DNA of 64,000 nt from an uncultured Hormoscilla sp. (lineage in GTDB: Bacteria; Cyanobacteriota; Cyanobacteriia; Cyanobacteriales; Desertifilaceae). Within the stretch, counting starts at the first letter, position 1; each line of letters begins with the position of its first letter. Where the stretch lies: positions 608,001-672,000 of the forward strand of contig OZ001293.3 of NCBI GenBank assembly GCA_963921275.4, given 5' to 3'. The notes beneath the pieces are model-generated. The model saw nothing but the letters and a program-made list of their open reading frames with translations, searched no databases and was not told where the DNA came from. The position numbers and the translations under genes are program-made. Shown piece after piece: positions 4,970-41,210 of this stretch.

Positions 4970-7618
4970 CTAAGCCAGAGGGTCACCCCTCCGACTCGTC
5001 TCCAAAACCGGACTTGATACTTTCGCATCATCCGGCTCCTCAGTAACGCCACCCTTGTCATGGGTACGGCTGTGACTACCATCGCTGGCAGTCTTTATAT
5101 CGTGGCAATGTTTGTGTAGTAACTGTAGGTTGTCGTACTGGTTTTTACCCCCTAATGAGAGGGGCTTGATATGGTCAACTTCCCACTTGTCACCATCCAT
5201 AAACGTTAATCCGCATTGTTGGCACTTTCCCTTTTGTCTCTTGAGTAGCGTTGCTACCCTCTTATTTAGCTCGGGGCTTTTGCCTAATCTCGTACTCCAA
5301 TATGTAAGGTTCCCGTCATATGGGCTTGCTGTACCTTTCACTTTTATGTGCCTGATTATCTCAGTTTCGGAGTATCTGTACAGCGTTATTTTTTCCTCTC
5401 CTATTTGGCACCGGAATCGCCATTTACCGTCCTCACTCAGGGACCAGTACTTACGAGCTATCCAATGACTGGATTTATTGGGATGTCTCCTTTTTGCCCA
5501 CTGCCAGAGAATGGTCCATAGGTAGTGGTCCATGTAGCTGTATGTTTCTTTACTTACCACTGTCCTATAATAGTTTGACCATCCCCGTATTATCGGGTTT
5601 AGCTTACTTATTAAGGCTGCTTGTGGTGCTGCTTTATGGCTGGCCACCATTTCTGATAGCCGTTCTTTATGCTTCCCTATGGACTTATTACTGGGTTTGA
5701 TTAGGGTTTTGAATCCTAGGGGTGTTCCGTTGGTTGACTTGCCGGTTCTGTATTTACCTATCTCATATTGCCTTACTTTGAAACCCAGGAAGTCAAACCC
5801 CGGGCTTTCTCCTTTTAGCGTATGAGCTATTTTTGTCTTCTCGGCTTTCAATTCTAGCCCTATTCCCTTTAGCCATTCTGCCACCACTATCTGCGCTCTG
5901 TCTATCATTCCCCTATCTTCATGCATTACCACAAAGTCATCAGCATACCTGACTACTGTCAGCTTTTGCTTTTCTTTTTGTGTCCTGGCGAGTTCCTTTA
6001 CTGCCTCCTCTAGTCCATGTAGGGCTATGTTGGCTAGTAGTGGTGATATGACTCCCCCTTGGGGTGTTCCCGCTTCGGTTGCATGCCATTCTCCTTTGTC
6101 TATCACCCCGGCTTTTAACCATGCCCGTATCTGCTTACGGATTGGTGACGTTGTATTTAATTTTTTTATTAGCGCTTTGTGGTCAATCTTATTGAAACAT
6201 TTTGCAATATCGGCATCCAATACCCACTTGGGTTTATATCTGATGCTGTTAAATATTGCCTTGATTGCATCGTGGCATCCCCGACCCGGTCTGAATCCAT
6301 AGGAGTTCCCTTCCATGTACGCTTCCCATTCGGGTTCGAGCGCAATCTTGAGGAGTCTGTGCGATTCGTTCTAGCCTAACGTGGTCAAACACGGAACGCT
6401 AGCCCGGTTTCATTAGCCGGGAACTCTGACCGCATGGGGGTTAAATTCCCCTCCCCCCAGGTACGGGGGTGACACCGGTCCTCGGTGCTACGAAGCGACA
6501 TCATCGTGGTGCTAAGCGAGGACTCAAATGTAGGATAACTGGCAGCCTAAGCCGGTGACGCCGCTAGGAAAGATATCCAAGGTTAGAGCAGGCAAACATG
6601 TGCAAGCCTCGTTATAAGGAACCAGCGAAATAAGGCTATATGCGCTGGCCTAAAAAGGAAATGGTAGCTAGTATTAGTTTTAGACTCTGGCTAATATAGT
6701 ACTCAAATAGCTCCCGGGGTATAGTGTGGACCTAAAGGTATCGCGAAATGTTGTTAGGGAACGAAGTAACCTCTCGTGTGCTGTCCATCAGGACAAGTTA
6801 GATGTTAAGCGCAAGCCACGGGGGGAGGGATGGCCCAAGAAGCGAATGCCCGGGGTAATTCCTGGGATAACATCTACAGTAATGTAGATGATGCTGGGTA
6901 GCCAGCGCTGACGTGGGTCGGTGATACTAGGAAGCTGCTGGAATGAGTAATCCTAAAAAGCCACGGAACTAATCCGAAACGCAAGTGGAGGATAAGGTAT
7001 GGATAACTGGTAAAACTGACTTGAAAATGGTGATACTAACGGTTATCAGAACAACCACTCGCTAAACCAGGAAAGGGAAGAAAAGACAGGCGGCAAGGGC
7101 TAACGGAAGTAATTCCTATTAAGTCTACCTATGAAAAGGGCCTAGTACCCAGTAGCCGGATGCGGTGAAAATCGCAAGTCCGGTTCCTCAAGGGAGGGTC
7201 GGGAAGCGATTCCCGGCTCGACCCCATCCCTGTGTCGCACGGTCGTACATCGTTGGTATTCCTAAAGGACGCTTCTCCTCTCTCCCCGGCTTTGGTATCC
7301 ATACACGACGTGTAGGTTTGGCCTTGTTTGAGATTTCAATCCGTCCTACCAGTTCTGAGCGTTGCTTTGGGGTCAGTGCTTTTACACTGTCCACTCCCGC
7401 CGTCTTCTTTCCCTGGTTGTCTTGAGTTACCTGTCGTACCGCTAGACTTTTGGCAGCCCGGGATTTTACCAGTAACCTTTGGAGTCTGCGAACTGGTCGC
7501 TTATTACGCCTTCCATTGCCGCTCTGTAAATTCGCTTTTGCAACTTAAAGACTACCCGCTCCAGCCGAGGCCAGGGGGTATCCTTTCATTCATTCATCGA
7601 TTCGGAAATCGTGCTCAT
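4970..7618 (-). pseudogene. ltrA: Group II intron RT-X-D-HNH protein, split by an antisense intron, with an early nonsense codon and a frameshift
   Basis: Removing 6359-7229 restores ...MYDRATQ|RLLKIALEPEWEAYMEGNSYGFRP. YADD and HNH (VDHIKP...HKHCH) are present. Confidence 0.92.
6359..7229 (+). mobile_element. ORF-less group IIB intron (871 nt), copy 1
   Basis: GTGCGATTCG start, DV AGCCGGATGCGGTGAAAATCGCAAGTCCGGTT, end CTCGACCCCATCC. Same sequence at 40340-41210. Confidence 0.92.
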
Positions 7619-7670
7619 GACCTGTGTATTGCTACTTACAACTTTACAATTAACGTTACCGTGAGGGCGT

Positions 7671-8613
7671 GGTCGGGGTCGAGCTGGGAATCACTTCCCA
7701 ACCCTCCAAGAGCGAAACCGGACTTGCGACTTTCACCGCTGGGGCTTGTCCTTAGGCATATCATCATCAATAATTAGGTCACCCCGTTTCCCCTTACCCT
7801 CTGTAATTTTACCCCTTATGGTCAATCCTATTGGACCGTTAATGATTTCAGCTCCGGAAGGTTCGCGGAGGGTAGTTCAGCAAACCGGTCTAACCGCTCT
7901 TTACTAACATTTCCCCATTCCTGATTTATCGGGGCTCTGAACTTTACCCGGCTGAGACTCTAGTCCATATTCATACTTTTGGATTTCTCCTAAGTTTTGC
8001 GACATATTAGGGCTACTTTCACCAAAGGCTTCTTACCATATCCGTCCGACGTCAGCTTATCCACGGGCATTACCCCGGGCATTTGCTTCTTAGGACATCC
8101 TTCCCCTCGTGGCTTGCGCTATGCGCTCCGCGCACGCTACGCGGACGTACATCTAACTGGTTCGGCCCCGTTGAGCCGAACTGCACACAAGAGGTTACTT
8201 CGTTCCCTGGTATCATTTCTCGATGCTTTTAGGTTCCTGCTATACCCCGGGAGTTCTTCGAGTGCGATGCTAGTAAGTACAGATTACCAACACTAACTAC
8301 CATTTCCCTTTTGGGCCAGCGTATCAGCCTTATTCCGCTGGTTATAGGTGACGAGGCTTACACAGGTTCGCTTGTTCTAACCATGAACATCTAACAAGCG
8401 CGGTGTTGCTAGCTTAGGCTGCCAGCTACCCTACATTTAAGTCCTAGCGGAGCACCACGGCGATGTGACTCCGCAGCACTAAGGACCGGTAGTACCCTCG
8501 ACCCCCCACACCTGAAGAGAGGGAATTTAACCCCCATGATAACCAGAGTTGTCTAGCAAATGAAACCAGACCAGACTTTCACCGTCACCGGTTTACGCCT
8601 GAACGAATCGCAC
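7671..8613 (-). mobile_element. ORF-less group IIB intron with damaged DV, nested in the outer intron RNA
   Basis: 5' GTGCGATTCG at 8613 and 3' CTCGACCCCGACC. The 5' strand of DV is replaced near 7740. Confidence 0.85.
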
Positions 8614-9259
8614 CTGCATATCCTATCCATTACAGACAGGCGTTGGCTTCTCCTCGAAATCTTTCCCAGATACAACCTGCCTTCCGGAGAGCAGATGTTG
8701 CGCCTGTGGTGGCTACTCAACCTATTGACCGGTGGTTGAGAGTATGTACCTGGTTTACTTCGTTCCTCTAGATGATTGGTCGTAGTTTTAGGTGGACTCT
8801 ATATGCCGGGTTTGTTGTCAGTGCTTATTGGTCGAATTACAACCGCCAATGACCTGTATCCTTTCCCTTTTGGGCCAGCGTATCAGCCTTTTCGCTGGTT
8901 TGGTATAACGACACTTATGAGCCTTTGCTTTTGCTCACCATGACTACTTGCTTGACGGTAACCGGTTTAAGCTGCCAGTTATTGCGCCTTTCTCTCCCGC
9001 TTTACGGATTGATGCCATCGCTACCGTCGGAAGAGTGCTGTCACTCCTGCACCTGGAGGGGTGGGCTTTCACCACCATCATCTAAAAGTTGTCAGGGCTA
9101 ATGGAACCCTGCTAGTGGTCCCTTTTTTTGACATGTGTCAAGTCATTTTACAATAAACGAATCGCACTATAACAGATATAATCATAGATGTCAAGCGAGC
9201 CGACGATCGCATCTTATGTTCCCGATCTCTAACAAGCAACAACTAACAACCAATAACTG

Positions 9260-9459
9260 AGTCCCCCCGTCAGTTCGTAGTCATAGCGACCCGAAGATAG
9301 GAAACGCATACCTCCTTGCAGCGCCGCATGCGCCAGTCCGCCATTCCGGGCAGGGACCATAGGTTTCCCGGCAAACACCGTGCCACCGTCAAAAATGCGA
9401 TTCAACTCATTCCACCCCATCTGTCTGACCAATCCCACTCCCGTTATAAAACTTAACAT
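9260..9459 (-). pseudogene. Collapsed remnant of a second giant Rhs gene (N-terminus fused to an internal segment)
   Basis: Similar to 36784-36887 and then to 39632-39730, joined at TGGT. Confidence 0.75.
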
Positions 9460-9518
9460 CTTGTAATTTATCGCAACAAAATTAAAATCTACTTAAGAAA
9501 CAGGGATCTCCCATGGGA

Positions 9519-10104
9519 GAGGAACGAAGTAACCCCCGTGGTGCTGTCCTCATTTGGACAAGTCAGATGTGCGTCCGCGTAGCGTGCGCGCAGCGCATAG
9601 CGCATGCCCATGAGGGGAGAGATGGCCCGAGAGGCTAATGCCTAGGCGGTGTCTGGAGCATGCCTTGGTGTCTGGAGCACACCGAGTCCTTCAGGACAAG
9701 AGTGTGCGGAAGACGCCAAAGTCCTTCAGGACAAGAGCATGCGGAAGACGCCGGTAATGCCTATGGATACGCAGACGCGGGTCGGTGATACTAGTAAACT
9801 ATTGGTACAAGTAGCTCTAAAATGTCATAAGCCCATTTACAGCGTTAGCGAAAGCGAGTTGAGGATTGAGGAATGTTTAACTGGTAAAACGGAGTGTTAA
9901 ATGGTGATACTAAAGGTTATCCGGCAGCTCCACTCACCAACCAGGAAAGGGGCGGACGTGCAAGTAGTAAGGGACAATGGGAGTAATCCCTAGTAATCCT
10001 ACCCGTGAAAGGGGCCCTAGTATCCAGTAGCCGTGTGCGGTGAAAGTCGCATGCACGGTTCCGAAAGGGAGGGTTGTCCCGCGAGGGACAGCTCGACCCC
10101 GACT
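9519..10104 (+). mobile_element. 5'-truncated ORF-less group IIB intron
   Basis: GGAACGAAGTAACC core, DV AGCCGTGTGCGGTGAAAGTCGCATGCACGGTT, end CTCGACCCCGACT. Confidence 0.85.
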
Positions 10105-10256
10105 TGCATTTAGCCTGTGCGGAAAAGATAAGGGTTGGTTATTTTATTACTTGTGACGATCACATGATTAAAAGGTATCGGGGATATCTGATTGTCATAA
10201 ATCCTACTACATTTGCTAATGATGCTATTAACACAGGAGGCGAAAATGACAAGTAA
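10104..10256 (+). pseudogene. C-terminal part of a PIN-domain toxin, truncated at the intron
   Basis: LHLACAE...YFITCDD...VINP PIN motifs begin at the intron 3' end. Confidence 0.65.
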
Positions 10257-10458
10257 ATTGGTTGTTCCGAAAATGGAGTATATTAGGATTGAAGGCATGA
10301 AAGCAATTATCGATCGATTGGTAATTGCTCAAGCGGCTTTCTTTTTCCGTGCTAATCTTTCCCAAGAGGTGGATTATTTACAAGTAAAAGAGGAGATGTT
10401 TGGCGATAAATCTGCTAGGGAACTTTATGAGGAAATTAAAAACCATAGTTCGGTGTAA
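10246..10458 (+). CDS. Small putative antitoxin partner of the PIN gene
   Basis: About 70 aa, overlaps the PIN stop, RBS AGGAGG upstream. Confidence 0.55.
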   Translation: MTSKLVVPKMEYIRIEGMKAIIDRLVIAQAAFFFRANLSQEVDYLQVKEEMFGDKSARELYEEIKNHSSV

Positions 10459-10609
10459 TATAGCGTTTCTCAAATTAATGTGGTACGGAATCATCGCCTA
10501 CTTGTCATTGCGAGGGGGGGAGTAAGGCGAGTAACTTATGCGAGGAGTGAGTTACCCCCCCCCGAAGCAATCTCCGACAGCATATCACACTAATATGAGA
10601 ACTGCTATA
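10459..10609. mobile_element. MITE with TATAGC ends carrying a GTCATTGCGAG...GAAGCAATCTC palindrome
   Basis: Imperfect ~27-bp inverted repeats TATAGCGTTTCTCAAATTAATGTGGTA / TATCACACTAATATGAGAACTGCTATA. Confidence 0.55.
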
Positions 10610-10656
10610 GCAGCTTTTATTTGTGAGAGATCGCCCGTTATCGCCGCTGCACGCGA

Positions 10657-11409
10657 TCACCCGATCGGGTGCCGCCCGTGCAGCCCGATCGCACCCCCCC
10701 ATCGCGCACTTGATCGCCCCTTTCCCCGATCGCCCCTTCCCCGATCGCCTTCCGGAACGCCCGCACTCACACCCGCTTCGCCCCTTTGCCCAAGCGCCCA
10801 TCTTCCAAGGGTTCGGGCTCTATCAGTTATATCTATACCTAGATTTGACAACCTTTGCAGTGATATACTTACTTCGTACCTAACCTGTTCTGAAGGGTCA
10901 TTTTTCATCTGCAAAAGCTCAGCTAATGCTTCCTGTGACAATTCTTCATCGCTCTCGTTTTGAACTATATGTTCTAATCCATGAGATACAAACGCTCTCG
11001 GACCTTCTTTTTCCAATGTCTTCATAGAACAGAGCGTTTCAAATGCCCGTCGATCCTGATAATATTCTCCTATAATTTCATAAATTACAAACCATGACAT
11101 CCAATCCTCGAATTTTTCATAAGAATCTTTTAATGCTGGAAGAAGTCGCTCTTTTTGTTCCTCAGACAGAAACTCCCAATTATACATCAATACCTGAACA
11201 AATAAGCATCGTGATTCTTCTAGTTCTAAAATCTCCCGTCGCTTTAATAAACTAAGAATCATTTGGAATATCTCTTCGGGAAAATTATCACAAAAAAAGA
11301 TTAGATTATCGTCCAGAGCCTTGCAAAACGCTTCAAACTGTGCAACACCACCAATACTAATAGCTTGGACAGCTTCTTGGAGAGCTTCTTCAATACTTTT
11401 TCTATCCAC
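10657..11409 (-). CDS. Orphan HEAT-repeat-like immunity protein, paralog of 19619-20323 (C-terminus reads into GC-rich repeats)
   Basis: Highly similar to 19619-20323 (NFPEEIFQMILSLL...KNDPSEQVRYEV). Confidence 0.7.
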   Translation of the reverse strand: MDRKSIEEALQEAVQAISIGGVAQFEAFCKALDDNLIFFCDNFPEEIFQMILSLLKRREILELEESRCLFVQVLMYNWEFLSEEQKERLLPALKDSYEKFEDWMSWFVIYEIIGEYYQDRRAFETLCSMKTLEKEGPRAFVSHGLEHIVQNESDEELSQEALAELLQMKNDPSEQVRYEVSISLQRLSNLGIDITDRARTLGRWALGQRGEAGVSAGVPEGDRGRGDRGKGRSSARWGGAIGLHGRHPIG

Positions 11410-11502
11410 TATCCCTACTCCTTATTAATCAACCTTTCTGTCGGTACATTAATAAAACTAATTGAACAAACCGTTGCCAAGTCCGAAATATTGTAGCTAT
11501 TA

Positions 11503-11593
11503 TATAGCATTTTTAATCTAGTGAGGTACGGAATAATTGGCTATCACTGGCAGTGCCAAGAATGTCGTACCTCACGAGGGTGAAACCGCTATA
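11503..11593. mobile_element. Short MITE of the TATAGC family (second copy ~20376-20466)
   Basis: TATAGC...GTGAGGTAC / GTACCTCAC...GCTATA inverted ends. Confidence 0.5.
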
Positions 11594-11638
11594 TAGGCTG
11601 TGGTCCGGGTATTAGTATGAGAACTCCAAACTTGTTTA

Positions 11639-12502
11639 TCATTCCCCCCAATGAGATCTCTTGTGAGAGTAATGACGTCTATTTTGAAAAGAGACTATGG
11701 AAAGGTTTTTTAACTTTAATAAAGGAGAAAGATCTCCATCTACTATCTTTGTCGAACCAGTAAACAAAACCATCTCTAGCTTGTTTAATTTTTCCAGTAG
11801 TTTTAACGAATCAATGTCACGGTTATCACAAATCTGTAGCTTTTTAAGCTTGTCAAGATTGGCAATTTCATTTATAGATGTTAAGGACGAACAGTTCTTA
11901 ATTTCGCATTCTTCTAGAAGAGTTAAATCTTCTATCCCAGACAAAGATGGTAGTTTTGTTAGATAATAAAGACCGAGAATTTTTAGTTTACATAGTTGTT
12001 TCAAACCCTCAAGACTTTTAATTGGTGCAACAGATATCCGCAATGACTCTAATTCGGTTAAATTTGAAAACTTGGATGTGTCTTGTTTAGTATAGCGATA
12101 GATAAACAACCGTTTTAAGGTTTTTCGATTAAATATAGATTTTGCTTTTGCTCTCCAAGATAAAAAGCAGTCTTCTAAATGAGGAAATTGCTCGAAATTT
12201 ATTTCGGTTTTACAATATGTACTTACTTCTAAGCTTTGTAATGAATGAAGATAGTTGATTGGAGAAATATCATCTATATTCCAATCAATTATGGAGAAAC
12301 ACCTTAAATGCGACATAGTTTTAAGAAAAGATAAATCTTTTCCTTTCCATCCTCTAGCATAATTAAGGTGAAGCTCTTTTATATCACGATCTAGAATGAA
12401 TTGGGTAATCTCATCGCTCCATGAAGAAGTTACTACAACCTTAACACCATGCTTTCCTTTTTCAAGAATAAATTTCTGCTCCATTGTTATTTTATGCTCC
12501 AT
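11639..12502 (-). CDS. Leucine-rich-repeat protein, probable immunity protein
   Basis: Repeated LxxLxxLxL motifs, AT-rich, directly downstream of toxin remnants. Confidence 0.8.
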   Translation of the reverse strand: MEHKITMEQKFILEKGKHGVKVVVTSSWSDEITQFILDRDIKELHLNYARGWKGKDLSFLKTMSHLRCFSIIDWNIDDISPINYLHSLQSLEVSTYCKTEINFEQFPHLEDCFLSWRAKAKSIFNRKTLKRLFIYRYTKQDTSKFSNLTELESLRISVAPIKSLEGLKQLCKLKILGLYYLTKLPSLSGIEDLTLLEECEIKNCSSLTSINEIANLDKLKKLQICDNRDIDSLKLLEKLNKLEMVLFTGSTKIVDGDLSPLLKLKNLSIVSFQNRRHYSHKRSHWGE

Positions 12503-12636
12503 TATTATTCACTGTGTGAGGGGCAAGAGTACCATTCAGGCTTAATATCCTGTAAGCCAGGACCTCTAAAGGCTTAAGCCTTTAGAGTAGGTCTTTTTTC
12601 AGGATAACTTTGCACTCTCCAGTTGTTTATCCAATG

Positions 12637-12830
12637 TTATTCATCCAATAAATGCCTTCTTTTTGGTCCAATCGGGTTTTTCTTATTCTCAAGATTTTGA
12701 ATCCCACCCAGTTCATCAATTATTCGTTGTTTGGCAATTTCTCGTTGGGTCTTACCGCCAACAACTTCTATTCTGTTAGCATTAGGTAACTCATCAGGAT
12801 CTAGTTTCCCTGTCTTTATATGTTGTTGCG
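12637..12830 (-). pseudogene. Toxin-tip remnant, possibly GIY-YIG/URI-like
   Basis: EVVGGKTQREIAKQRIIDELGGIQNLENKKNPIG with no N-terminus. Preceded by an LRR-immunity fragment (12835-12935). Confidence 0.4.
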
Positions 12831-12949
12831 AAAGATAAATCTTTTTCTTCCCATCCTTTAGCATGATTAATCTCGAGATCCTTTAGATCGCGATCTATAA
12901 TGAATTGTACAATCTCATCGCTCCATCGCCCAACAAGACCAATGAGATC

Positions 12950-13272
12950 GATCTCGGTAAACTGACCAATAGCATTGTAGCCAAAGTCCACCCGCTTATC
13001 CCTGACATTGTTGCCCGTCTGGGTGAGTTGGGTGAGGCGGTTCAAGGAGGAGAAGCTGTAGGCATTCGTGCCCCCTTTCGATGCCCTCGGGATGCTTCGC
13101 AAAAACCCCTCGGGCATCGCCACCCCATTGATAGTATCTGTCACCGACTTGACGTTGTCAACACCGTCGTAACTGTAGCTGAACCCACAAGGAACCACAT
13201 TGGGTGCCCCTGGAGTGCCAGTATTGTCTGCCGTCAGGACGCGATTCGCGGTTGTCATAGGTAAAGGCCAGG
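12950..13272 (-). pseudogene. Rhs core fragment
   Basis: Similar to 19250-19517 (RVLTADNTGTPGAPNVV...RVDFGYNAIGQFT). Confidence 0.85.
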
Positions 13273-13402
13273 TGTGGTCATAAGTAGTTGATAGCCGGGT
13301 GCATCTGGTGATACATGTATATAGCCCGCGCAGGCGGGCTTTGTTCATGTAGCCGGACCCTTTAGGGTGAGGGATCGAGCAAGCTCTGTATTGCGCATCG
13401 CT

Positions 13403-13888
13403 TCACCTATCATTTTTTTTCCAATAACTTTGAAGCGCTTCATCAGCGTCACCCAACGAGTACTCCTCATATTGCTCTTCCACACATTTTAAAAATGACG
13501 TAATCGCTTTTTTTTGTTCGCTTGTAAACTTAGCTACCCGCGATAGAAAATATTCTCTTAGCCTCGGTTCGCTGGGAGCTGATGCCGTCAAATTATAAAC
13601 CGTAAACATCAACACATTGCTATCTGGATTTTCCAGTCCATGAATCATATATGCTGGCAAAAAAAAGGGATAAGCTTCTGGACTTAAAAAAGACAAGGTG
13701 GAATAATTACTATTTATTATTTCCCTAGAAAGATCTTTCCAACTCTTCCAATGTTTTCCCTTAAAATCCTCAACTTCTGACTCCTCATAGCTTTGAGGAT
13801 GAAGAAGATGTTCGTCTCCTGGATATTTCACATTTTTAAATGCATCTTCTATTTCTTTTTTTACCTCTGTTGCTTTGACATTACCCAT
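13403..13888 (-). CDS. DUF6714-like immunity protein (orphan)
   Basis: IEDAFKNVKYPGD...FLSPEAYPFFLPAYM, with paralogs at ~14500-15000 and 17231-17725. Confidence 0.75.
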   Translation of the reverse strand: MGNVKATEVKKEIEDAFKNVKYPGDEHLLHPQSYEESEVEDFKGKHWKSWKDLSREIINSNYSTLSFLSPEAYPFFLPAYMIHGLENPDSNVLMFTVYNLTASAPSEPRLREYFLSRVAKFTSEQKKAITSFLKCVEEQYEEYSLGDADEALQSYWKKNDR

Positions 13889-14076
13889 CTTCTTACTTTT
13901 AACTTAGGAACTTAACTTACTTTTATCCAGGGTTATTTTATTCTACCCGATCGCCGTCACCCGTTCCCAGGCAGCGCATCCCGCAGAGCCGCATCCCGAA
14001 GCACGAGCGCCTAAGCGAGTGCGGAGAGGAGAGCAGCCGTGGGAACGAGGGGTGCGGCTACAAGAACCAAGCAATG

Positions 14077-15000: not shown

Positions 15001-15037
15001 ATTCTTACTTTTAACTTAGAAACTTTACTTACTTTTA

Positions 15038-17002: not shown

Positions 17003-17230
17003 GCGATTCCGGTAATCGTAGACAAACGTCGTCTCGTTGTCAACCGGGTCCGTGACTGAGTTCAGGTTGTCATCCAGATCGTAGCCGAACTTAGTGCTGC
17101 CACCACCGGGGTCCAGCGTCTCTATTAGGCGATCGCGAGGATCGTAGATGTTCGTCGTCTCATTCCCCAGGAGGTCTACTGATTGATGTCAGAGCAATGC
17201 AGCGAGAACCACGCTCTGTATTGCGCCGCT

Positions 17231-17725
17231 TCACCTATCATTTTTTTTCCAATAACTTTGAAGCGCTTCATCAGCGTCATTCAACACGTACTTCTTATAT
17301 TGCTCTTTCACGCATTCTAAAAATGACGTAATCGCTTTTTTTTGTTCGCTTGTCAACTTAGCTATCTGCAATAGAAAATGTTCTTCTAGCTCCGGATCGC
17401 TGGGATATGATGCCGTCAAATTAAAAACCGTATACATCAACACATTGCTATCTGGATCTTCCAGTCCATAAATCATATATGCTGGCAAAAAAAAGGGATA
17501 AGCTTCTGGGCTGAAAAAAGGCAAGCTGCAATAATTATGAGCTATTATTTCCCCAGGAATATCTTTCCAACTCTTCCAATATTTTCCTTAAAAATCCTCA
17601 AAATCTGCATCTACATATTCTTGAGGATGAAGAATATCATCGTCATCTTCTGGATATTTCACATTTTCAAATGCATCTTCTTTTTTTTTTTTAACGTCTT
17701 CAATTGTTGCTTTTACATTACTCAT
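17231..17725 (-). pseudogene. DUF6714-like immunity gene, frameshifted
   Basis: Paralog of 13403-13888 with a frameshift near the 12-nt homopolymer at ~17681. Confidence 0.75.
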
Positions 17726-17762
17726 ATTCTTACTTTTAACTTAGAAACTTTACTTACTTTTA

Positions 17763-19517: not shown

Positions 19518-19618
19518 GTGTGGTCATAAGTAGTTGATAGCCGGGTGCATCTGGTGATACATGTATATAGCCCGCGCCGGAAGGTTGCCACGCTGCGCTC
19601 GCAATGACATTGCTTTGT

Positions 19619-24760: not shown

Positions 24761-24839
24761 AATGCAATTATAACGCAGTTTGGCAACAGGAGCGATCGTC
24801 CGCCCGATCTCCCACCCTTACGCCCGCCCCCCGTATCCC

Positions 24840-26703: not shown

Positions 26704-26751
26704 TTGCGCAAACAGGGAAACTGTTAGCATTGAAATGAGAAAGATAATTTT

Positions 26752-29134
<2,383 letters not shown>

Positions 29135-29140
<6 letters not shown>

Positions 29141-30482: not shown

Positions 30483-30523
30483 ATAATGTGGTACCTGGGT
30501 ATCCCCTCGCTTGTCCTATCCCC

Positions 30524-32119: not shown

Positions 32120-32166
32120 ATTGCGAATTGTAAATTGTGAATTGCGAATTGCGAATTGAGCCGTAG

Positions 32167-33259
32167 CCGTTCGTAGTAATTAGGGGTCGAGCTGGGAATC
32201 GCTTCCCAACCCTCCCTTTCGAACCGTGCATGCGGTTTTCATCGCACACGGCTACTGGTTAGTTGGACCTTGTCATTGGCAGGATTACTGGGGATTGCTC
32301 CCTTTGTCCCTCTTCTTATGCAGTTTTTCCCCTTTATGGTAGTCGATAGGACTGTTTCGTATCTAGCTCCGGAAGGTTCGCGGGGGGTATCCAGGAAACC
32401 ACTTATACCGCTCTTTGCTAACATTGCCCCTGTCTCGTCATTAGGGGACTTTTCAAGTTTTACCCGGCTAGAGTTTTAGTCCATATTACAATCTAGGATT
32501 TCTCCTGATTTTTGGTACGTATTAGGGATACTTCCACCCAAGATTTCCAACTATATCCGACCCACGTCTGCCGGTACATTCCTGCACCACTTATACAAGG
32601 AGTTACCCCTGTCCTTTGCTTCTTGGGCCATCTCTCTCCACATGGCTTACGCTTATCATCTAACTGGTCCCTATCTCCTGACCACCGGTCGATAGTCGAG
32701 TAGTTATGGACAGCACACGTGGAGTTACTTCGTTCCCTGGTATCATTTCACGATGTTTTTAGGTCCCTGCTTTACCCCGGGAGCTACTTTGAGTGTGATG
32801 TTGGCCATATGCAACAGCCAACACTAGCTACCATTTCCTTTTTAGGCCAGCGTGTAAGCCTTCTTCCGCTGGTTACACATAACGAGGCTTTCACAGATTC
32901 GTTTTCCTAACCATGAGCATCTTTCCTAGCGGAGTTGCCGACTTTGGGCTGTCAGCTATCCTACATTTAAGTCCTTGCTCCGCACCACGGTGATGTCACT
33001 CCGCAGCACTAAGGACCGGTGTCACCCCCACACCTGGGGAGAGGGAATTTAACCCCCATGATGACCAGAGTTACCATATTGAGCCTGATTATGATTAGTT
33101 TTGGTTCTAAACATTCAGTCCAATTTTGGCTCGGCTTTTCCGTGTTTGTACAGGTTAGGCCGAAACGAGTCGCACAACACTTTAGTGTTTATCTCCGTTC
33201 GTAGTAAACACTTTAGTGTTTATCTCCGTTCGTAGTAAACACTAAAGTGTTTATCTCCG
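32167..33259. repeat. 31-bp tandem palindromic repeat (CCGTTCGTAGTAAACACTTTAGTGTTTATCT, ~3 units) split by an intron; single copy at ~58507
   Basis: Half unit 32167-32178 plus units at 33176-33259. Confidence 0.8.
32179..33175 (-). mobile_element. ORF-less group IIB intron (997 nt)
   Basis: 5' GTGCGACTCG at 33175, DV AGCCGTGTGCGATGAAAACCGCATGCACGGTT, end CTCGACCCCTAAT. Confidence 0.9.
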
Positions 33260-33457
33260 GGGGCGGTATTATGGCTAACCTGTAGGAATTGATATCATAT
33301 TTGTACCATATTCTGTCTCATAGGAACCCAACGGACGGGCGATCGTCCACTGCGCCTCCCCGAGTAAGGCCCGTGTTAAGTTACACCAGAGGCTCTGCCT
33401 CTAGATGTGCGTTCCCTGCCTTCCTCAGGGAACGAGAGAAGTCCCTTACAATTGACA

Positions 33458-35077
33458 ATGAACAATCAACAATTAACAATAGACAAAATTAGCTTCCGTA
33501 CAGTCCTAGTTATAGCGGGCATATTTTTCTGCTGCCTGCTGGGTTTCTCTCTCCATCGTCATTATAGCTTCTTTACCAGTTACGATCAAGGAATTTTCAA
33601 CCAGGTTTTCTGGAATAATCTCCACAGACGCTGGTTTGAAAGTTCTCTCTCTTCGGCTCTTTCTACTAATGTCGTTCACGATCGCTCATTCCCAGATGTT
33701 GGTTATCGCCGCTTGGGACAACATTTTACTCCCGCTTTGCTGCTGTGGCTACCTATCTATGCCCTATTTCCTTCCCCCGCGACTCTGTTGGCGATTCAGG
33801 TGACGCTGATTGCGGCGGCTGGTCTGCTACTCTATGTTTTGGCCAGAGTTTATCTCTCTCCTCGACTGGCTTTGACGATCGCGGCTAGTTATTACTGTGG
33901 CAATGCGGTAATCGGACCGGCCTTTTCTAATTTTAACGACCTGTGTCAGATGCCGCTATTTATCTTTGGGTTGCTGCTGGCCCTGGAAAAACGGGTTTGG
34001 TGGCTGTTTTGGTTGCTAGCAGTTGCTACTTTGGCGATTCGGGAAGATAGCGGCGTGGTATTGTTTGGAGTGGGAGTCTATATGGTGGGCAGTCGCAGGT
34101 TTCCTGGGCCGGGGTTGGCTTTATGTTCTCTTAGCTTTGGCTATATAATGTTGGCGACTAATCTGCTGATGGCGCTGTTTTCTCAGGATGTCTCCCGCCG
34201 GTTTACGATCGAACATTTCGGTCAGTATGCCCGGGGCAATGAAGCTTCGACTCTGGAGATTCTCTGGGGCATGATCTCTCAACCTCATAAGGTGATTATA
34301 GCACTATTCTCTCCTCTGGGCAAGACGATGAATTTCTTGGCCGGACAATGGTTGCCTTTGGCTTTTGTTCCGGCTGTTTCTCCCGCCTCCTGGGCGATCG
34401 GGGGTTTTCCGATGCTGCAACTGATGCTGCAAGAGGGGAGTTTTGCTCTGCGCTTGAATTGGCGTTATGCTATTACTGTTGTCCCCGGTATCTTTTATGG
34501 CACTATTTTATGGTGGTCCGCCCATGGCGATAAGTTTACTCCCTTGCTGCGCCGCTTCTGGATCGCTTGCTGGGCGATCGCCTTAACTTTTACTCTTTCC
34601 TCTAGTCCCCATCAGGTATTTTATTTCCTGATCCCTGATTCTCGGGAACCTTTAGTCTATACTTCTCTCAGTCAGCGTTGGGAACATGTGGGCCATATCC
34701 GAACTTTGATGCAGAAAATTCCCCCTGATGCTTCGGTTTCGGCAACTACTTTCCTGGTGCCTCATTTGTCCGGACGCCGGGAAGTTTTACGTTTGCCTGC
34801 TTTGCAACTGCGGAATGATGCTGCTGAAGTGGTTTGGGTGCAGTATGCGATCGCGGACTTCCAGCATTTCCGGCAATACTTGCCTGCTTTCAAGTTTTTC
34901 GGTCCCCAAATGTCAGCGACAATAACAGTAATTGACCGGGTTGTAGCCCAGGGTTTGTATGGGATAATTGAGGTAAGAGATGGAGTGGTGTTGCTGGAAA
35001 AAGGTATGTTATCTCAACCACAAGCTTTGACTGACTGGGAAACTTTGCGGGAACGGGTTCGTAGCACCGCCCACTAA
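33458..35077 (+). CDS. DUF2079-like membrane protein (GT-C-like)
   Basis: YDQGIFNQVFWN, LGQHFTPAL, many TM segments, ASVSATTFLVPHLS. Confidence 0.8.
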   Translation: MNNQQLTIDKISFRTVLVIAGIFFCCLLGFSLHRHYSFFTSYDQGIFNQVFWNNLHRRWFESSLSSALSTNVVHDRSFPDVGYRRLGQHFTPALLLWLPIYALFPSPATLLAIQVTLIAAAGLLLYVLARVYLSPRLALTIAASYYCGNAVIGPAFSNFNDLCQMPLFIFGLLLALEKRVWWLFWLLAVATLAIREDSGVVLFGVGVYMVGSRRFPGPGLALCSLSFGYIMLATNLLMALFSQDVSRRFTIEHFGQYARGNEASTLEILWGMISQPHKVIIALFSPLGKTMNFLAGQWLPLAFVPAVSPASWAIGGFPMLQLMLQEGSFALRLNWRYAITVVPGIFYGTILWWSAHGDKFTPLLRRFWIACWAIALTFTLSSSPHQVFYFLIPDSREPLVYTSLSQRWEHVGHIRTLMQKIPPDASVSATTFLVPHLSGRREVLRLPALQLRNDAAEVVWVQYAIADFQHFRQYLPAFKFFGPQMSATITVIDRVVAQGLYGIIEVRDGVVLLEKGMLSQPQALTDWETLRERVRSTAH

Positions 35078-35299
35078 CAGTTTCTGGGCCTACGCACCGG
35101 GGTTGAGAAACCGGGTCGGCTGCGCAGCAGCTAGCCTGTGCGCGCAATCTTGAGATGCTCAACTGCTAGCCGCTGCGCTGACGCCACGGCTACGCCTGCA
35201 CTAACGCCCCTACAGTTATCTTTGAAAAATGAAAGGCTCCCGAACCAGGAGGCTTACGGTAGGAGCCGGAGAAACCGGGTTTCTTTTACCTAAACGCCG

Positions 35300-35655
35300 A
35301 ACAAATTCTTGATGGGCCTGAGTTTGCAAACCCTACTGCAAAACTGCAAAAAGTTCACTCTGGTTTTTTTGGCGCAGGGACTCTACCGATAACCACAAAC
35401 CAGGGAACACAATACTAGAGATAATGCCATTGTCATCGAGGCGCAAAGGGACATAGCGACCTGCTTCCAGATAAAACCAATCAACTCGGTTCTCATAGAT
35501 TTGCCAGACAATATATTCTTGTACGCCATTGCGACGATAGGCATTGAGTTTGTCATGCAGGTCGTAAGCGGCGCTGCTGGCCGCAACTTCGACAATTAGT
35601 TCCGGCGATCGCCGTTTGAGCGCATGGGTAGGTCTAGCTGGGGACTGACAACCAT
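35300..35655 (-). pseudogene. Uma2 endonuclease with an internal deletion
   Basis: MVVSP...NGDR joined out of frame to PELIVEVAASSAAYDLHDKLNAYRRNGVQEYIVW...VFPGLWL. Confidence 0.75.
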
Positions 35656-35965
35656 AGGGGCAAAAAATAATTACTGCTAAGTCTATTTTATCATATCAAT
35701 AGCGTCAGGTAGGCGAGGGTGCGATCAAAATCCTTGGGTTTATAACAGGTATACCCGCCGGAATGGGATCTACTTGCGCTTTTTTCTGGTTTGGTTGGGA
35801 CCGAGGGGCGCTTGATCGCCGGAGAAACCGGGTTTCTTTTACTATCTCCGTGGAAATGCCAAAATCTGCGGTATAAACCCGGTTTCTGCTCCTCTCTGCG
35901 CCAGCTAGCTGTCTTGCACCAAAATAGGATACAATTTAAACATATCAGGTAGAGGTACAGTAGAT

Positions 35966-36649
35966 ATGGTACAGCAACTAGAACATTTAAAAAATCCTAC
36001 CCAGCCAGACATTATCTATCCCGATAGCGACGGTCAACCAATGGCAGATAACACCACACAATTTCGCTGGATCGTAATCATCAAGGAAAATCTCGAATTG
36101 CTGTTTGCGGCCTATGCCGATATTTTTGTCGCCGGAGACCTGTTATGGTATCCGGTTGAAGGAAATAATAAGATTAGAATGGCACCGGATGCCATGGTTG
36201 TCTTTGGCAGGCCCAAAGGCGATCGGGGTTCCTACAAACAATGGAGAGAAGATAACATTGCTCCGCAGGTAGTGTTTGAAATCTTATCTCCAGGGATCCG
36301 CGCTTCCGAAATGGACAAGAAATTGGAGCTTTACGATCGCTATGGCGTGGAAGAATACTACCTCTACGATCCCGAGAAAGTCAACTTGACCGGTTGGCTG
36401 CGTAGGGAAGGAAAATTAGAATCGATCGACAAGCTAGATGGTTGGGTAAGTCCCAGACTCAAGGTGCGGTTTGATTTGACAGGGCCCGAACTACAGATTT
36501 TCACGGCATCAGGCGATCGGTTTTTAACTTATTTGAAAATGGGACAACTCAAAGAACGGGAACGACAACGGGCCGAACAGGCTGAAGCGAGAATTAAAAT
36601 GCTTTCACACCGACTGCAAGAACTGGGCATCGATCCCGAACAGTTGTAA
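35966..36649 (+). CDS. Uma2-family PD-(D/E)XK endonuclease
   Basis: YPDSDGQPMADNT, APDAMV, PQVVFEILSPG, YGVEEYYLYDP. Confidence 0.92.
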   Translation: MVQQLEHLKNPTQPDIIYPDSDGQPMADNTTQFRWIVIIKENLELLFAAYADIFVAGDLLWYPVEGNNKIRMAPDAMVVFGRPKGDRGSYKQWREDNIAPQVVFEILSPGIRASEMDKKLELYDRYGVEEYYLYDPEKVNLTGWLRREGKLESIDKLDGWVSPRLKVRFDLTGPELQIFTASGDRFLTYLKMGQLKERERQRAEQAEARIKMLSHRLQELGIDPEQL

Positions 36650-37619
36650 TATCATGTCCGATCGAATGCCCTAACATAAAAATTGTATCACTTGTAGGTT
36701 GGGTTGAGGCACGAAACCCGATTGGGTAACGCGAGACACTCATGGTGGTGGGCGGTGCCCTTTGTTGCGAGAAAGATTACAAGATGTTAAGTTTTATAAC
36801 GGAAGTGGGATTGGTCAGACAGATGGGGTGGGATGAGTTGAATCACATTTTTAGTGGTGATACTGAGTTGGCCGGAAAACCTATGGTGGGGCACTGCTCG
36901 GGTGCTGGCGCTAAGGAGGGGGGGCCTGCTCGCTGGTGCTGGCGCTTTAGCGCTCACTACGAACCTAGAGAGAGGATGTAATGGAAAATTAGGAGGTATT
37001 ATTGGGCTCCACAGGCCCGCTAGAACTGCCTGATGGGAGTCGGTTGGGGCTTTTGGGCATTGCTGGAGATTCTATAGTACCCCAAAGTCTGGAAGGGCGA
37101 TCGGCTGGAGTGGAAAGTCAGGCAGTTCTAGTGCCGCTAGAGGTTAGTCCCGATGAGATTGAGGAAATTCCACCAGATGTAGACCCGTTGACGGGCATTC
37201 CAGAGACGGGGGGCACGAACAATAATTTAACTCTCAAGCTTGCTAATAATTCTGAAGCGCCTCTGCTTCTGGATATCGATCGCAATGGCAGAGTGGAAGC
37301 TTGGACCGATGGGATTATGATTGTTCGCCATCTGTGGGGATATTCTGGGGAGAGTGTGGTTCTATATGCAGTTGCGCCAGATGGGACGAGGACTGATGCG
37401 GCCGAAATTACATCATACCTTGATAAACTGGGTCTGGTCCTGGACGTGGATGGGGATGGCGAATTAATGCACCAGACAGATGGGGCAATGATTTTTCGCT
37501 ATCTGTTGGGATTTTCTGGTGTGTTTCTGGTTCACAATGTGATCGGCCCCGGCGCGACTCGGGATACGGTGGAGGAGGTGACGGCATACCTGGATGAACT
37601 CAAGAGTATGACTGTGACA

Positions 37620-38515
37620 CCTCCAGCAGAAAATCAAGCACCGGTACTGGAACCAGTAGGGGACCTGGAAGTGATGCCCGGCGGTCGTCTGGAGGTGCAG
37701 TTACAAGCAACAGACCCGGATGGAGATCCGATCAAATTCTTTCTGGGTAACTCATCAGCTCTGCCCACGGGAATGCTGGAAGGGAATGGCATTCTGGTAT
37801 TTACTCCGACAATAGATGAGTTGGGAACTTATAGTTTTACAATTATTGCCTCGGATGGCGAGTTGGAAGCGACAGAAGAGGTCACCTTGAAAGTGATACC
37901 GGATACGGTTGTGACTCCAGAACCTCCAGCAGAAAATCAAGCCCCGGTTCTGGAACCAGTGGGGGACCTGGAAGTGATGCCCGGAGGTCGTCTGGAGGTG
38001 CAGTTACAAGCAACGGACCCGGATGGAGATCCGATCACATTCTCTCTGGGTAACTCATCAGCTCTGCCCACGGGAATGCTGGAAGGGAATGGCATTCTGG
38101 TATTTACTCCGACAATAGATGAGTTGGGAACTTATAGTTTTACAATTATTGCCTCGGATGGCGAGTTGGAAGCGACAGAAGAGGTCACCTTGAAAGTGAT
38201 ACCGGATACGGTTGTGACTCCAGAACCTCCAGCAGAAAATCAAGCCCCGGTTCTGGAACCAGTGGGGGACCTGGAAGTGATGCCCGGAGGTCGTCTGGAG
38301 GTGCAGTTACAAGCAACGGACCCGGATGGAGATCCGATCACATTCTCTCTGGGTAACTCATCAGCTCTGCCCACGGGAATGCTGGAAGGGAATGGTATTC
38401 TGGTATTTACTCCGACAATAGATGAGTTGGGAACTTATAGTTTTACAATTATTGCCTCGGATGGCGAGTTGGAAGCGACAGAAGAGGTCACCTTGAAAGT
38501 GATACCGGATACGGT
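37620..38515 (+). repeat. Three near-identical 303-bp coding repeats (101-aa cadherin/Ig-like unit)
   Basis: CCTCCAGCAGAAAATCAAGC at 37620, 37923 and 38226. NQAPVL...ATDPDGD...ASDG. Confidence 0.92.
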
Positions 38516-39235
38516 GACGACGACTCGCATCTCTGGGACGATCCAAAATACAGAGGAAGAACCTCTAGCTAGCGTACCTATTGAACTGGGCGATTTGCAG
38601 ACGGTGACGGCGGCAGATGGTTCCTTCACTATTGAAATTACGGGTACGCTATCAGACGATACCCTGAAGGTGCGCGGGGAAGAAATAGCCGGAGACCTTA
38701 CCTACCCGTTCGTTGCGGAGAAGTTGCCCTGCTGCTAGGACGGGACCCGCTGACGGGAGTTAATAATGTCGTCAGTCGTCCGATATTCCTGCCGGCGATC
38801 GATATAGACAATGGGGTAAAAATTGACCCATCTGTGGATACGATGGTGACGACAGATGCTATCCCTGGGGCGGAAGTGTTCGTGGCAGCGGGAACCCTGG
38901 AAAGTATGGATGGCAGTCTGTTTACGGGCCAGTTGAGTATTACGGAAGTGCCGCGAGACCTCACCCCCGCAGCCCTACCAGAAAATCTGTTACCGGATGT
39001 CGTGGTAACTATTCAACCGGCAGAGATAATCTTTACTACGCCAGCACCCCTGTCGATGCCCAATGAGGCGGGCTACGATCCGGGAACGGAGATGGACCTG
39101 TGGTCAATTAATCCAGAAACGGGCGAATTTGAACGGGTGGGAACTGGTGAGGTAAGTGCGGATGGCAGTACGATTAATACGATAGAAGGCGGTATCCGCA
39201 ACAGTAGTTGGCATTTCTTTGTGCCATTTTTATTA

Positions 39236-39325
39236 TTAGAAGTGCCGACTGACCCAGAAGATAACCCGCGCAACCCAGATTTAGAAGTGCCGACTGACCC
39301 AGAAGATAACCCGCGCAACCCAGAT
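39236..39325 (+). repeat. 45-bp in-frame tandem duplication
   Basis: LEVPTDPEDNPRNPD occurs twice. Confidence 0.9.
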
Positions 39326-40339
39326 GATGAATGTAGCTGTTGTAAGGTAACGGCACCAGGGACTTCAGAGGTAGAATTGCATTCAGGTGCGGTGTTGGAG
39401 TCTCACGACTTGGTGCCTTATCAGTCTTTGGGCGTGAGTCGGGGTTTAACCCTCAGCTACGATTCTCTGCGGGCAGACCCCAGACAAATTATGCATTTTG
39501 GCTATGCTAACGTACAGGCGGACCAGAATCGCCGCTTGGTGGCCGAACTGGCAATCAGTCGGGGCGATTTTGAGTTCCAAGTACCGGGGTTTGCAGGGGG
39601 TGAGTACGGACTGGATGGGGGCGAACATTTTTGGTCCCTGCCCGGGAATGGCGGACTGGCGGATGCGGCGCTGCAAGCGGATATGCGTTTTCTATCTTCG
39701 GGTCGCTACGACTACGAACTGACGAGGGGACTGCTACAGTTGAATGATGAGAATCTGTTTAGCGGTTCGACTTCGACCAGTTCGGGACGGCTGCTGCATG
39801 TCAATAGGATCGACAGTCCCTTCGGTAATGGTTGGGGACTGGCGGAATGGCAGGAATTGGTGGAAAATCCCGATGGTTCGGTCCTGCTGATCGATGGAAA
39901 TGGTGGGGAACTGCTGTTTGAAGCGTCAGCAACAGGAGATGGTTACGAGTCTCCTCGTGGGGACTTCTCAACTCTGGAACGCTTGCCAAATGGGACTTTT
40001 CAGCGGACGATGAAGGACCGGACGGTCTACAGCTTTAACGGACAAAATCAGTTGGCGCGGATGGTAGACCGCAATGGGAATGAAACTGAGTATGTTTATA
40101 CGGGAGGCCAGTTAAGCAAGATTGTTGACCCGGTCGGACTGGAAACTACCTTTACCTATACTAATGGCAGGGTGACGGCGATCGCGGACCCAGCGGGGCG
40201 GGTGACTCTGTTGGAGTATGATGCAGCAGGAAACTTAACTAGGATTACTGACCCGGATGGCACTCGGCGGACTTGGGAGTACGATGCTAACAACCACATG
40301 ATTGCTGAGATTGACAAGCGGGGTAATCGAGAGGAGACT

Positions 40340-41210
40340 GTGCGATTCGTTCTAGCCTAACGTGGTCAAACACGGAACGCTAGCCCGGTTTCATTAGCCG
40401 GGAACTCTGACCGCATGGGGGTTAAATTCCCCTCCCCCCAGGTACGGGGGTGACACCGGTCCTCGGTGCTACGAAGCGACATCATCGTGGTGCTAAGCGA
40501 GGACTCAAATGTAGGATAACTGGCAGCCTAAGCCGGTGACGCCGCTAGGAAAGATATCCAAGGTTAGAGCAGGCAAACATGTGCAAGCCTCGTTATAAGG
40601 AACCAGCGAAATAAGGCTATATGCGCTGGCCTAAAAAGGAAATGGTAGCTAGTATTAGTTTTAGACTCTGGCTAATATAGTACTCAAATAGCTCCCGGGG
40701 TATAGTGTGGACCTAAAGGTATCGCGAAATGTTGTTAGGGAACGAAGTAACCTCTCGTGTGCTGTCCATCAGGACAAGTTAGATGTTAAGCGCAAGCCAC
40801 GGGGGGAGGGATGGCCCAAGAAGCGAATGCCCGGGGTAATTCCTGGGATAACATCTACAGTAATGTAGATGATGCTGGGTAGCCAGCGCTGACGTGGGTC
40901 GGTGATACTAGGAAGCTGCTGGAATGAGTAATCCTAAAAAGCCACGGAACTAATCCGAAACGCAAGTGGAGGATAAGGTATGGATAACTGGTAAAACTGA
41001 CTTGAAAATGGTGATACTAACGGTTATCAGAACAACCACTCGCTAAACCAGGAAAGGGAAGAAAAGACAGGCGGCAAGGGCTAACGGAAGTAATTCCTAT
41101 TAAGTCTACCTATGAAAAGGGCCTAGTACCCAGTAGCCGGATGCGGTGAAAATCGCAAGTCCGGTTCCTCAAGGGAGGGTCGGGAAGCGATTCCCGGCTC
41201 GACCCCATCC
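40340..41210 (+). mobile_element. ORF-less group IIB intron (871 nt), copy 2, sense orientation in the Rhs gene
   Basis: Same as 6359-7229 by eye. Removal gives GNREET|TYDFAGR. Confidence 0.92.

Follow-up and report, generated by a model that had tools for sequence, protein, structure and literature searches.

One question that persists in accounts of spliceosomal intron origins is how group II introns were able to reach high copy numbers. Thermosynechococcus elongatus carries 28 group II introns in all, 17 of which lack an open reading frame (ORF) and fall into four families (Mohr, Ghanem & Lambowitz 2010, PMC2882425; this and the other papers are cited here for portions of their text). Similar ORF-less introns are described here from a 64,000-nt stretch of DNA of an uncultured Hormoscilla sp. 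(assembly GCA_963921275.4, contig OZ001293.3, positions 608,001 to 672,000), referred to as the window, and from the surveyed genome to which it belongs (7.03 Mb, 7 contigs). As in the TeI3/TeI4 introns of T. elongatus (subgroup IIB1), the ORF-less copies outnumber the ORF-bearing ones, their families are set by the exon-binding sites EBS1, EBS2 and EBS3, their sites mostly match these guides and include other introns, reverse transcriptase (RT) genes and insertion sequence elements, and A-15 and A-14 of the target matter for targeting (PMC2882425). The RTs also belong to the same lineage (best PDB match 6ME0_C). The two systems differ in that 323 full-length ORF-less copies with 48 guide sets are present here against 17 copies there, and in that ORF remnants and ORF-bearing siblings are described there (PMC2882425), whereas neither was found in this genome. 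Moreover, insertions of the largest family, F0, into RT genes are mostly antisense here (12 of 14, plus the type of RT site seen in the window).

The targeting rules of IIB1 and IIB2 introns, including EcI5 of E. coli, provide a second point of comparison. The pairing of EBS2a with its intron-binding site (IBS2a) is required for retrohoming and not for splicing, and the RT keeps it in position (Monachello et al. 2021, PMC8643678). It was not statistically detected in organellar ORF-less introns, and is expected to be kept where ORF-less introns continue to be mobilised in trans. The same paper gives a purine bias at target position -15, where Ala or Ser at RT residue 173 goes with A and Glu with G. 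The present introns agree with these rules, with EBS2a pairing with -14 and preceding the 5-nt EBS2 by two positions, a purine at -15, Glu-173 going with G-15 and Ala-173 with A-15. They differ in that the rules are seen here within one genome and in ORF-less introns, whereas in the portions of PMC8643678 cited they are predicted and illustrated with T. elongatus only, and in that residue 173 can also be Gly, Gln or Lys.

Across the 1,790 representative bacterial genomes surveyed by Miura et al. 2022 (PMC8919778), the maximum was 101 group II introns per genome, in Arthrospira platensis. The expansion of chloroplast-like (CL-type) and ORF-less introns in filamentous cyanobacteria noted there is found here as well, with 492 matches to domains V and VI (DV-DVI) and 323 full-length ORF-less copies against 101, a ratio that is approximate because the methods differ. 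With more than 300 copies that lack a protein gene and with 48 guide sets, this genome extends the known per-genome range several-fold. Intron-in-intron insertion in a cyanobacterium is known from the Trichodesmium group II twintron (Pfreundt & Hess 2015, PMC4649490); here, in contrast, nesting is frequent and includes antisense insertion, self-nesting and tandem arrays, and the nested copy of the window looks dead. Our literature searches, the coverage of which was without most subscription journals, returned no paper that connects Hormoscilla with introns and no account of a cyanobacterium with ORF-less introns in the hundreds. The anatomy and the mechanism match those of TeI3/TeI4, with no departure from the mechanism already known. 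In scale, the published maximum is exceeded several-fold.

A preliminary description of the window, made from its letters alone, had listed six related ORF-less introns (at 6359, 7671, 9519, 27187, 32179 and 40340) and had interpreted them as a non-autonomous, RNA-guided insertion family that diversifies its guide loop and shares a helper RT. The present analysis supports this interpretation and confirms part of the underlying observations. The ORF-less copies are very probably group IIB (TeI3-like) retroelements that are targeted by their guides and mobilised in trans by a resident intron RT. They are non-autonomous, as had been proposed, because they contain no ORF, and mobilisation by resident RTs is argued for by the covariation of EBS1, EBS2, EBS2a and EBS3 with the target and by a purine at -15, the position at which the base of the RT-bearing introns' own sites tracks an RT residue.

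In the proposed mechanism, the intron would reverse-splice into a guide-matched DNA site, with the 6-nt EBS1 loop pairing with target positions -6 to -1, the 5-nt EBS2 loop with -13 to -9, the single nucleotide EBS2a, two positions upstream of EBS2, with -14, and the single nucleotide EBS3 with +1. The RT of some ORF-bearing intron of the same genome, supplied in trans, would then copy the intron into DNA. Changes of guide nucleotides would open new target sites, and could in this way give 48 guide sets on one conserved scaffold. We infer this reverse-splicing and cDNA route from the patterns presented below, and a particular RT could be assigned as helper only on the same basis.

ORF-less introns in the genome

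The DV-DVI profile gave 492 matches in the genome, 449 of them near full length, and a profile of intron 5' ends gave 413. Stack pairing of the two sets yielded 369 pairs. Pairs of 700-1100 nt with an anchored 3' end were taken as full-length ORF-less introns and grouped into families at >=95% identity. This resulted in 323 introns in 49 families (sizes 139, 71, 16, 14, 8, 7, 7, 5 and so on) carrying 48 guide sets and together amounting to 282,050 nt, or 4.0% of the genome. Family F0 (871 nt) numbers 139 copies that are >=98% identical and occupy 121 different sites, with CC at the 3' end in 138 of them, and family F1 has 71 copies of 835 nt in 59 sites. As many as 58 of the 139 F0 copies are letter-identical. 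Among the 31 genomes searched, F0 at >=99% identity was limited to this one; its best matches in congeners are 91-92% identical and likewise ORF-less. The families therefore consist of many near-identical copies without ORF at independent guide-matched sites, rather than of introns that decayed independently in place.

Several arrangements of the copies were recorded in addition. F0 forms head-to-tail arrays of three copies (G000:C1:5447656-5450266) and of two copies (824936-826675), in which each newer copy lies exactly at the 5' junction of its predecessor. It is also inserted in its own domain IV (DIV) at position 768 (e.g. G000:C1:1325884-1327625; five copies, all with the same flank). In the F9/F10 lineage (e.g. 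G000:C1:6223863-6224450), which has GGGAAT as EBS1, all seven copies lie at ...ATTCCC|, a conserved domain I stretch of other group II introns; this lineage is an intron-in-intron insertion specialist. No obvious replication-strand bias was seen in plus and minus counts per 0.7-Mb bin.

Pairing between guide loops and target sites

The registers of the guide loops were fixed on F0, with EBS1 (AGACTC) set against -6 to -1 and EBS2 (positions 256/257-261) against -13 to -8, counting Watson-Crick and GU pairs. Copies sharing flanks with another copy were removed, which left 288 unique events of the 323. Over these events, the intron's own EBS1 pairs at 5.23 of 6 positions, compared with 2.63 for the flanks of other guides, and its own EBS2 at 4.12 of 6 compared with 2.57. 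For EBS1 the score was 6/6 in 123 events, 5/6 in 127, 4/6 in 27 and lower in 11. When F0 and F1 were left out (108 events), the values were 5.35 versus 2.59 for EBS1 and 4.21 versus 2.35 for EBS2. The pairing signal was gone when the flank was shifted by 1-3 nt in either direction. Own flanks scored better than those of other groups in 46 of 48 guide groups (Wilcoxon p 3.6e-14). The preliminary description had named two conditions that would refute its interpretation, a lack of genome-wide correlation between guide and flank and independent in-place decay of the copies. Neither was observed, the correlation being strong.

EBS1 and EBS2 are also the second and third most variable 6-nt windows among the 49 family representatives (entropy 1.76 and 1.51, mean 0.66), and family F3, held together by >=95% identity, contains two wholly different EBS1/EBS2 sets. 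A less variable stretch, CCAAGGTTAG, was considered as EBS2 and rejected, as the cross-family comparison places EBS2 at the hypervariable pentamer 257-261. For EBS3, an unbiased scan of all columns found F0 column 364 to be Watson-Crick complementary to +1 in 40 of 48 groups (against 28 groups for the next best column). Since EBS1-IBS1, EBS2-IBS2 and EBS3-IBS3 pairings of the expected kind are all present, the introns are assigned to subgroup IIB.

A similar scan for position -14 pointed to column 255, which is Watson-Crick complementary to it in 40 of 48 groups (against 25 groups for the next best column); each of the four pair types is represented. In this loop U254 is invariant, 255 variable, A256 invariant and 257-261 variable, and an invariant AA follows. 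This layout, together with the pairing of column 255 with -14, corresponds to the EBS2a-IBS2a arrangement of PMC8643678. Counted per event, the pairing is weaker (169 of 288 overall; 79 of 108 outside F0 and F1).

In the window, EBS1 matches the 5' exon of its own copy at 4/6 to 6/6 positions, well beyond what chance would give; the preliminary description had noted such a match as usual, and as weak for the 32179 element. The match is AGACTC/GAGTCT (6/6) for the 6359 copy, the EBS2 of which scores 5/6, AGACTC/GAGACT (5/6) for the 40340 copy, TGCACT/AGGGTA (5/6) for the 27187 copy, CTGTAC/ATGCAG (5/6) for the copy starting at 8613 and TGCATA/AGTGTT (4/6, with EBS2 also 4/6) for that starting at 33175. 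As the 6359 and 40340 copies are 100% identical, they represent one guide, not two. EBS2a pairs with -14 in four of these five full-length copies and a purine stands at -15 in four of five, the 27187 copy being the exception. Several hundred independent integrations with known guides constitute a data set for the targeting rules of targetrons, in particular for EBS2a-IBS2a and for -15 versus RT residue 173.

Target position -15 and the resident reverse transcriptases

With the guide groups weighted equally, the base frequencies at -15 are A 0.45, G 0.45, C 0.01 and T 0.09, that is 0.90 purine, which makes it the strongest family-independent position. At the group level, the introns thus combine the EBS2a-IBS2a pair with a purine at -15, as mobile IIB1/IIB2 introns do. 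The families differ in the purine. F0 has A 85, G 4, C 16 and T 15 (120 events), and F1 has A 39 and G 2 (59 events); in the smaller families A and G are about equal.

Tblastn located 92 RT loci in the genome, 22 of which have ORFs of >=555 aa and are apparently intact. The resident intron RTs contain RVT_1, GIIM and HNH domains, and their nearest solved relative is the T. elongatus intron RT, in whose numbering residue 173 was mapped by alignment to 6ME0_C. Over the 92 loci this residue is E in 25, A in 20, G in 10, Q in 4 and K in 4, the motif not being found in 29; for the 22 whose ORFs are >=555 aa long, the counts are E 8, A 6, Q 3, G 2 and K 1, with the motif not found in 2. When 21 intact RTs were aligned, the column of this residue was the 15th of 574 by entropy, and it lies inside the otherwise constant motif GFRPGRGCHDAI-x-AI.

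The 5' end of the intron itself was unambiguous for 35 of the 63 motif-bearing RT loci, which gave 33 unique sites; one row was dropped because its supposed start was that of an adjacent F0 copy. The -15 base of these ORF-bearing introns was G in 9, A in 2 and C in 3 for Glu, A in 6 and T in 2 for Ala, A in 7 and T in 1 for Gly, and A and G in 1 each for Gln. G-15 thus accompanies Glu in 9 of 14 sites and Ala or Gly in 0 of 16 (A-15 in 13 of 16; Fisher p 1.4e-4). This split shows that the published residue-173 rule holds in cis in this genome.

By this rule, the F0 and F1 bursts, including three of the window copies, would have been driven by RTs without Glu at residue 173, and more than one RT allotype probably serves the ORF-less introns. 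The single shared helper RT of the preliminary description may therefore give way to several allotypes, while the notion of a helper as such is favoured by EBS2a-IBS2a, the purine at -15 and the 22 apparently intact RT genes. More tentatively, and with the balance slightly against it, retargeting could operate on two layers. RNA guides (EBS1, EBS2, EBS2a and EBS3) would diversify on the ORF-less ribozymes while the resident RTs diversify the residue that reads -15 (E, A, G, Q or K), so that different families would need different RT allotypes and F0 and F1 would be driven by those of Ala/Gly type. If so, RNA guides and protein allotypes would occur in this genome as a natural library of combinations, and no bacterium described so far would be richer in introns.

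In the ORF-bearing introns, which measure about 2,390 nt, the RT frame extends across DV and is closed by a stop inside DVI, about 27 residues past the homology to the T. elongatus RT, and consequently these introns have almost no 3' strand of DIV. Two of the 22 intact RT loci (G000:C1:1144913-1147417 and 6623500-6625993, approximate positions) consist of a whole ORF-bearing intron within the DIV of an ORF-less-type intron, with two DV-DVI units about 115 nt apart. Conversely, 16 of the 92 RT loci hold a full ORF-less intron (F0 antisense 12, F0 sense 2, F1 sense 3 and F4 antisense 1), and the type of RT site seen in the window adds four further antisense F0 insertions. The non-autonomous elements thus often destroy potential helpers.

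Reading frames and splicing

Introns were removed in silico and an open frame of >=150 codons was sought across the junction, which is a crude frame test and not a gene annotation. Such a frame was found in sense in 69 of the 288 events, in antisense in 38 and in neither in 181, compared with 818, 847 and 1335, respectively, at 3000 random sites. Outside F0 there were 44 sense and 14 antisense cases (binomial p 1e-4). This bias fits a purging of unspliceable insertions over time. Some copies lie in frame inside ordinary genes that are uninterrupted in relatives, and the ORF-less copies presumably splice in vivo.

Evaluation of the proposed mechanism

A number of observations weigh against guided mobilisation of the ORF-less introns by resident RTs. 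No ORF-bearing sibling of F0 or F1 was found by blastn against the 22 intact RT loci, each taken together with 1.7 kb of upstream sequence, which returned nearby ORF-less copies and short pieces of 70-85% identity; the intact RT introns themselves match F0 and F1 in pieces only, at about 70-78%. The DIV motif of F0 and F1, which is shared by some other families and not by all, is never followed by an ORF at its 235 sites, 228 of which lie within 250 nt of a DV-DVI end. Since no ORF-bearing sibling has the same scaffold or DIV, a helper would have to serve a diverged ribozyme. No signs that the ORF-less form arose from a resident ORF-bearing intron, through a single DIV deletion that left flanking ORF remnants, were seen in this genome, the only one searched for them. 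The DIV element for binding the intron-encoded protein that the preliminary description had expected the copies to share was not found either, as RNAalifold on the 49 representatives gave no convincing shared hairpin and DIV (about 600-790 in F0) has the highest column entropy, being the least conserved part of the intron. At the target, just 57 of the 121 F0 events have EBS2a paired with -14. The -15 purine could also be recognised through RNA pairing with the invariant U254 rather than through protein contact, a reading to which the only counterpoint is the preference of F0 and F1 for A over G. F0, the youngest family, shows no bias in the frame test (25 sense, 24 antisense). The sole matching RNA library (word share 0.08) consists of a relative's sequence, of about 90-95% likeness, and is silent on splicing here; one of its contigs bridges 27187->28026. 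Two of the window elements are defective. The F11 copy at 8613->7671 has no match at the gathering cut-off (40 bits) of RF00029, the Rfam covariance model for DV-DVI, and its DV has a mutated 5' strand (fold z-score -0.77). It is probably dead, because DV does not fold and the Rfam threshold is failed. The element at 9517-10104 is without EBS1, EBS2 and 5' end, while six other copies of 99% identity extend upstream into a full domain I. Finally, 44 5' ends and 123 3' ends remained unpaired in the census and stand outside all analyses.

The absence of an ORF-bearing intron with the ORF-less scaffold or DIV, and the poor conservation of DIV, would also be accounted for if the helper were a free-standing maturase or RT-like host protein, or if the copies spliced without protein and their mobility had long ended. 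Either seems improbable, since the 58 letter-identical F0 copies, which have no equals of such identity in congeners, require very recent reverse transcription, while the -15 preference obeys the residue-173 rule of resident intron RTs and EBS2a-IBS2a is retained in 40 of 48 guide groups. It is less probable again that the copies multiplied as DNA without RNA guidance, through segment duplication, recombination or riding in other mobile elements. Processes of this kind are compatible with the 35 of 323 copies that share flanks with another copy, such as F0 in repeated RT introns and F11 in two identical contexts, and with the head-to-tail F0 arrays; they do not explain why the flanks of 288 copies are unique, stop precisely where the intron begins or ends and fit the copy's own guides in register, or the clean empty site found in relatives. 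The least credible alternative is that each copy lost its ORF independently in place. Within families, copies at hundreds of sites agree in length and are nearly identical in sequence, and the same ORF-less form is present in a congener, whereas one element of the window does resemble such a loss, that at 2578->1802, an ORF-deleted derivative of an ORF-bearing type with one close copy only.

Introns and insertion sites in the window

RF00029 matched above gathering at seven places in the window, namely 4487-4564(+), 4964-5040(-), 7151-7227(+), 10026-10103(+), 27943-28020(+), 32179-32256(-) and 41132-41208(+). The 5' ends were assigned with the 5'-end profile, for which introns of this genome had served, and with the limits of multi-copy similarity. 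Five full-length ORF-less introns of 835-997 nt and one 5'-truncated copy were delimited in this way. The six positions of the preliminary description are all real boundaries; 7671 and 32179, however, are the 3' ends of minus-strand introns with 5' ends at 8613 and 33175, and 9519 marks a truncated 3' part of 589 nt. The scores of the elements at 6359, 40340, 27187, 33175->32179 and 9517 are 42.1-47.9 bits. All five full-length copies start with GTGCG, as do 25 of the 49 family representatives (those inspected). In minimum free energy folds DV is canonical, and DVI has an unpaired GA with the bulged A 8 nt before the 3' end. The scaffold that had been thought common to the six elements was borne out by their alignment, in which the EBS loops are hypervariable and DVI has compensatory changes between families.

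The first F0 copy (6359-7229, plus strand, 871 nt, RF00029 at 7151-7227) and the F11 copy (8613->7671, minus strand, 943 nt) both lie within an ORF-bearing intron of a type termed type 2, at 9167->4964 on the minus strand. Its 4204 nt consist of 2390 nt of its own and the two insertions; it starts with GTGCGA at 9167 and ends in an RF00029 match at 4964-5040(-) of 53.6 bits. The ORF at 4970-6316(-) of this host intron encodes RVT_1, GIIM and HNH domains, with 6ME0_C, the T. elongatus maturase RT, as best PDB match (E 2e-78). The RT gene is split by F0, and is also frameshifted near its start, so that its N-terminal part is in two frames. F0 is antisense to it, which agrees with the RT gene target named earlier, and its excision in silico rejoins ...DRATQ|RLLKIALEP. 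The F11 copy, likewise rightly described as lying in an intron, is sense-nested just upstream of the RT ORF, forming a twintron. It has a 5' profile match at 8613 and a partial DV-DVI match at 7739-7673, found with the nhmmer profile only. F11 has two genomic copies, both in the same host context.

The second F0 copy (40340-41210, plus strand, 871 nt, RF00029 at 41132-41208) is the one identical to the first over its whole length. It lies in sense in an RHS-repeat gene, the 5' exon of which (38834-40339) matches RHS_repeat, and the junction ...NREET|TYDFAGR is in frame. The Rhs part of the target given previously is thus retained, while no toxin domain was shown. The RHS-repeat frame shifts at least once downstream of the copy, at 41211-41800, and the host gene may be a pseudogene.

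A kinase target had been proposed for the F1 copy at 27187-28021 (plus strand, 835 nt, RF00029 at 27943-28020), which belongs to the family with 71 genomic copies. It was indeed found in sense and in frame in a hybrid kinase gene, between an exon at 26752-27186 with Response_reg and an exon at 28022-28774 with HisKA and HATPase_c. The gene is uninterrupted in four of four congeners searched, which read ...ELEIRV/I|AERT... across the empty site. At 27170-27186, compared with the F1 consensus, the distance from IBS1 to an IBS2-like stretch and its two preceding As is greater by 2 nt. The insertion may therefore have slipped or gone off target, and nevertheless lies in frame in a gene.

The F6 copy (33175->32179, minus strand, 997 nt, RF00029 at 32179-32256(-), 5' profile match at 33175; 7 genomic copies) is inserted within a 31-nt tandem repeat, as had been recognised. 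The repeat adjoins its 5' end (33176-33259) and resumes past its 3' end. The truncated element at 9517-10104 (plus strand) is of F9 type and comprises the 3' 589 nt, that is the end of domain I and domains II-VI, with RF00029 at 10026-10103. The PIN toxin gene named as its target was not confirmed, as the frames flanking the element had no Pfam match at E<=1.

The window contains two further introns. The ORF-deleted derivative of a type-2 ORF-bearing intron mentioned earlier, which was missing from the preliminary list, occupies 1802-2578 on the minus strand (777 nt) with a weak RF00029 match at 1802-1879(-). Its part 1948-2578 resembles the 5' 630 nt of many type-2 introns, and 1803-1946 their 3' end, at 70-88% identity; its other genomic copy is 97.5% identical. 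The DV-DVI at 4487-4564 (plus strand, 45.8 bits) belongs to a decayed ORF-bearing intron of another RT lineage, whose RT fragment at 3076-3891 matches RVT_1 and has about 35% aa identity to the other RT of the window.

Other features of the window

Isolated 24-nt matches to the Rfam family CRISPR-DR28 occur on the minus strand at 13322-13345, 47885-47908, 47975-47998 and 60368-60391, one just above gathering and three below. Being scattered and not arrayed, they probably represent some short dispersed repeat rather than CRISPR. Positions 1-1010 belong to the terminal part of an insertion sequence that encodes a DDE transposase (ORF 420-992, DDE_Tnp_1_3/DDE_Tnp_1), of which about 85 genomic copies of >=98% identity are present. 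The closest named relative of one protein of the window is from a Hormoscilla sp. metagenome-assembled genome, with 84% aa identity.

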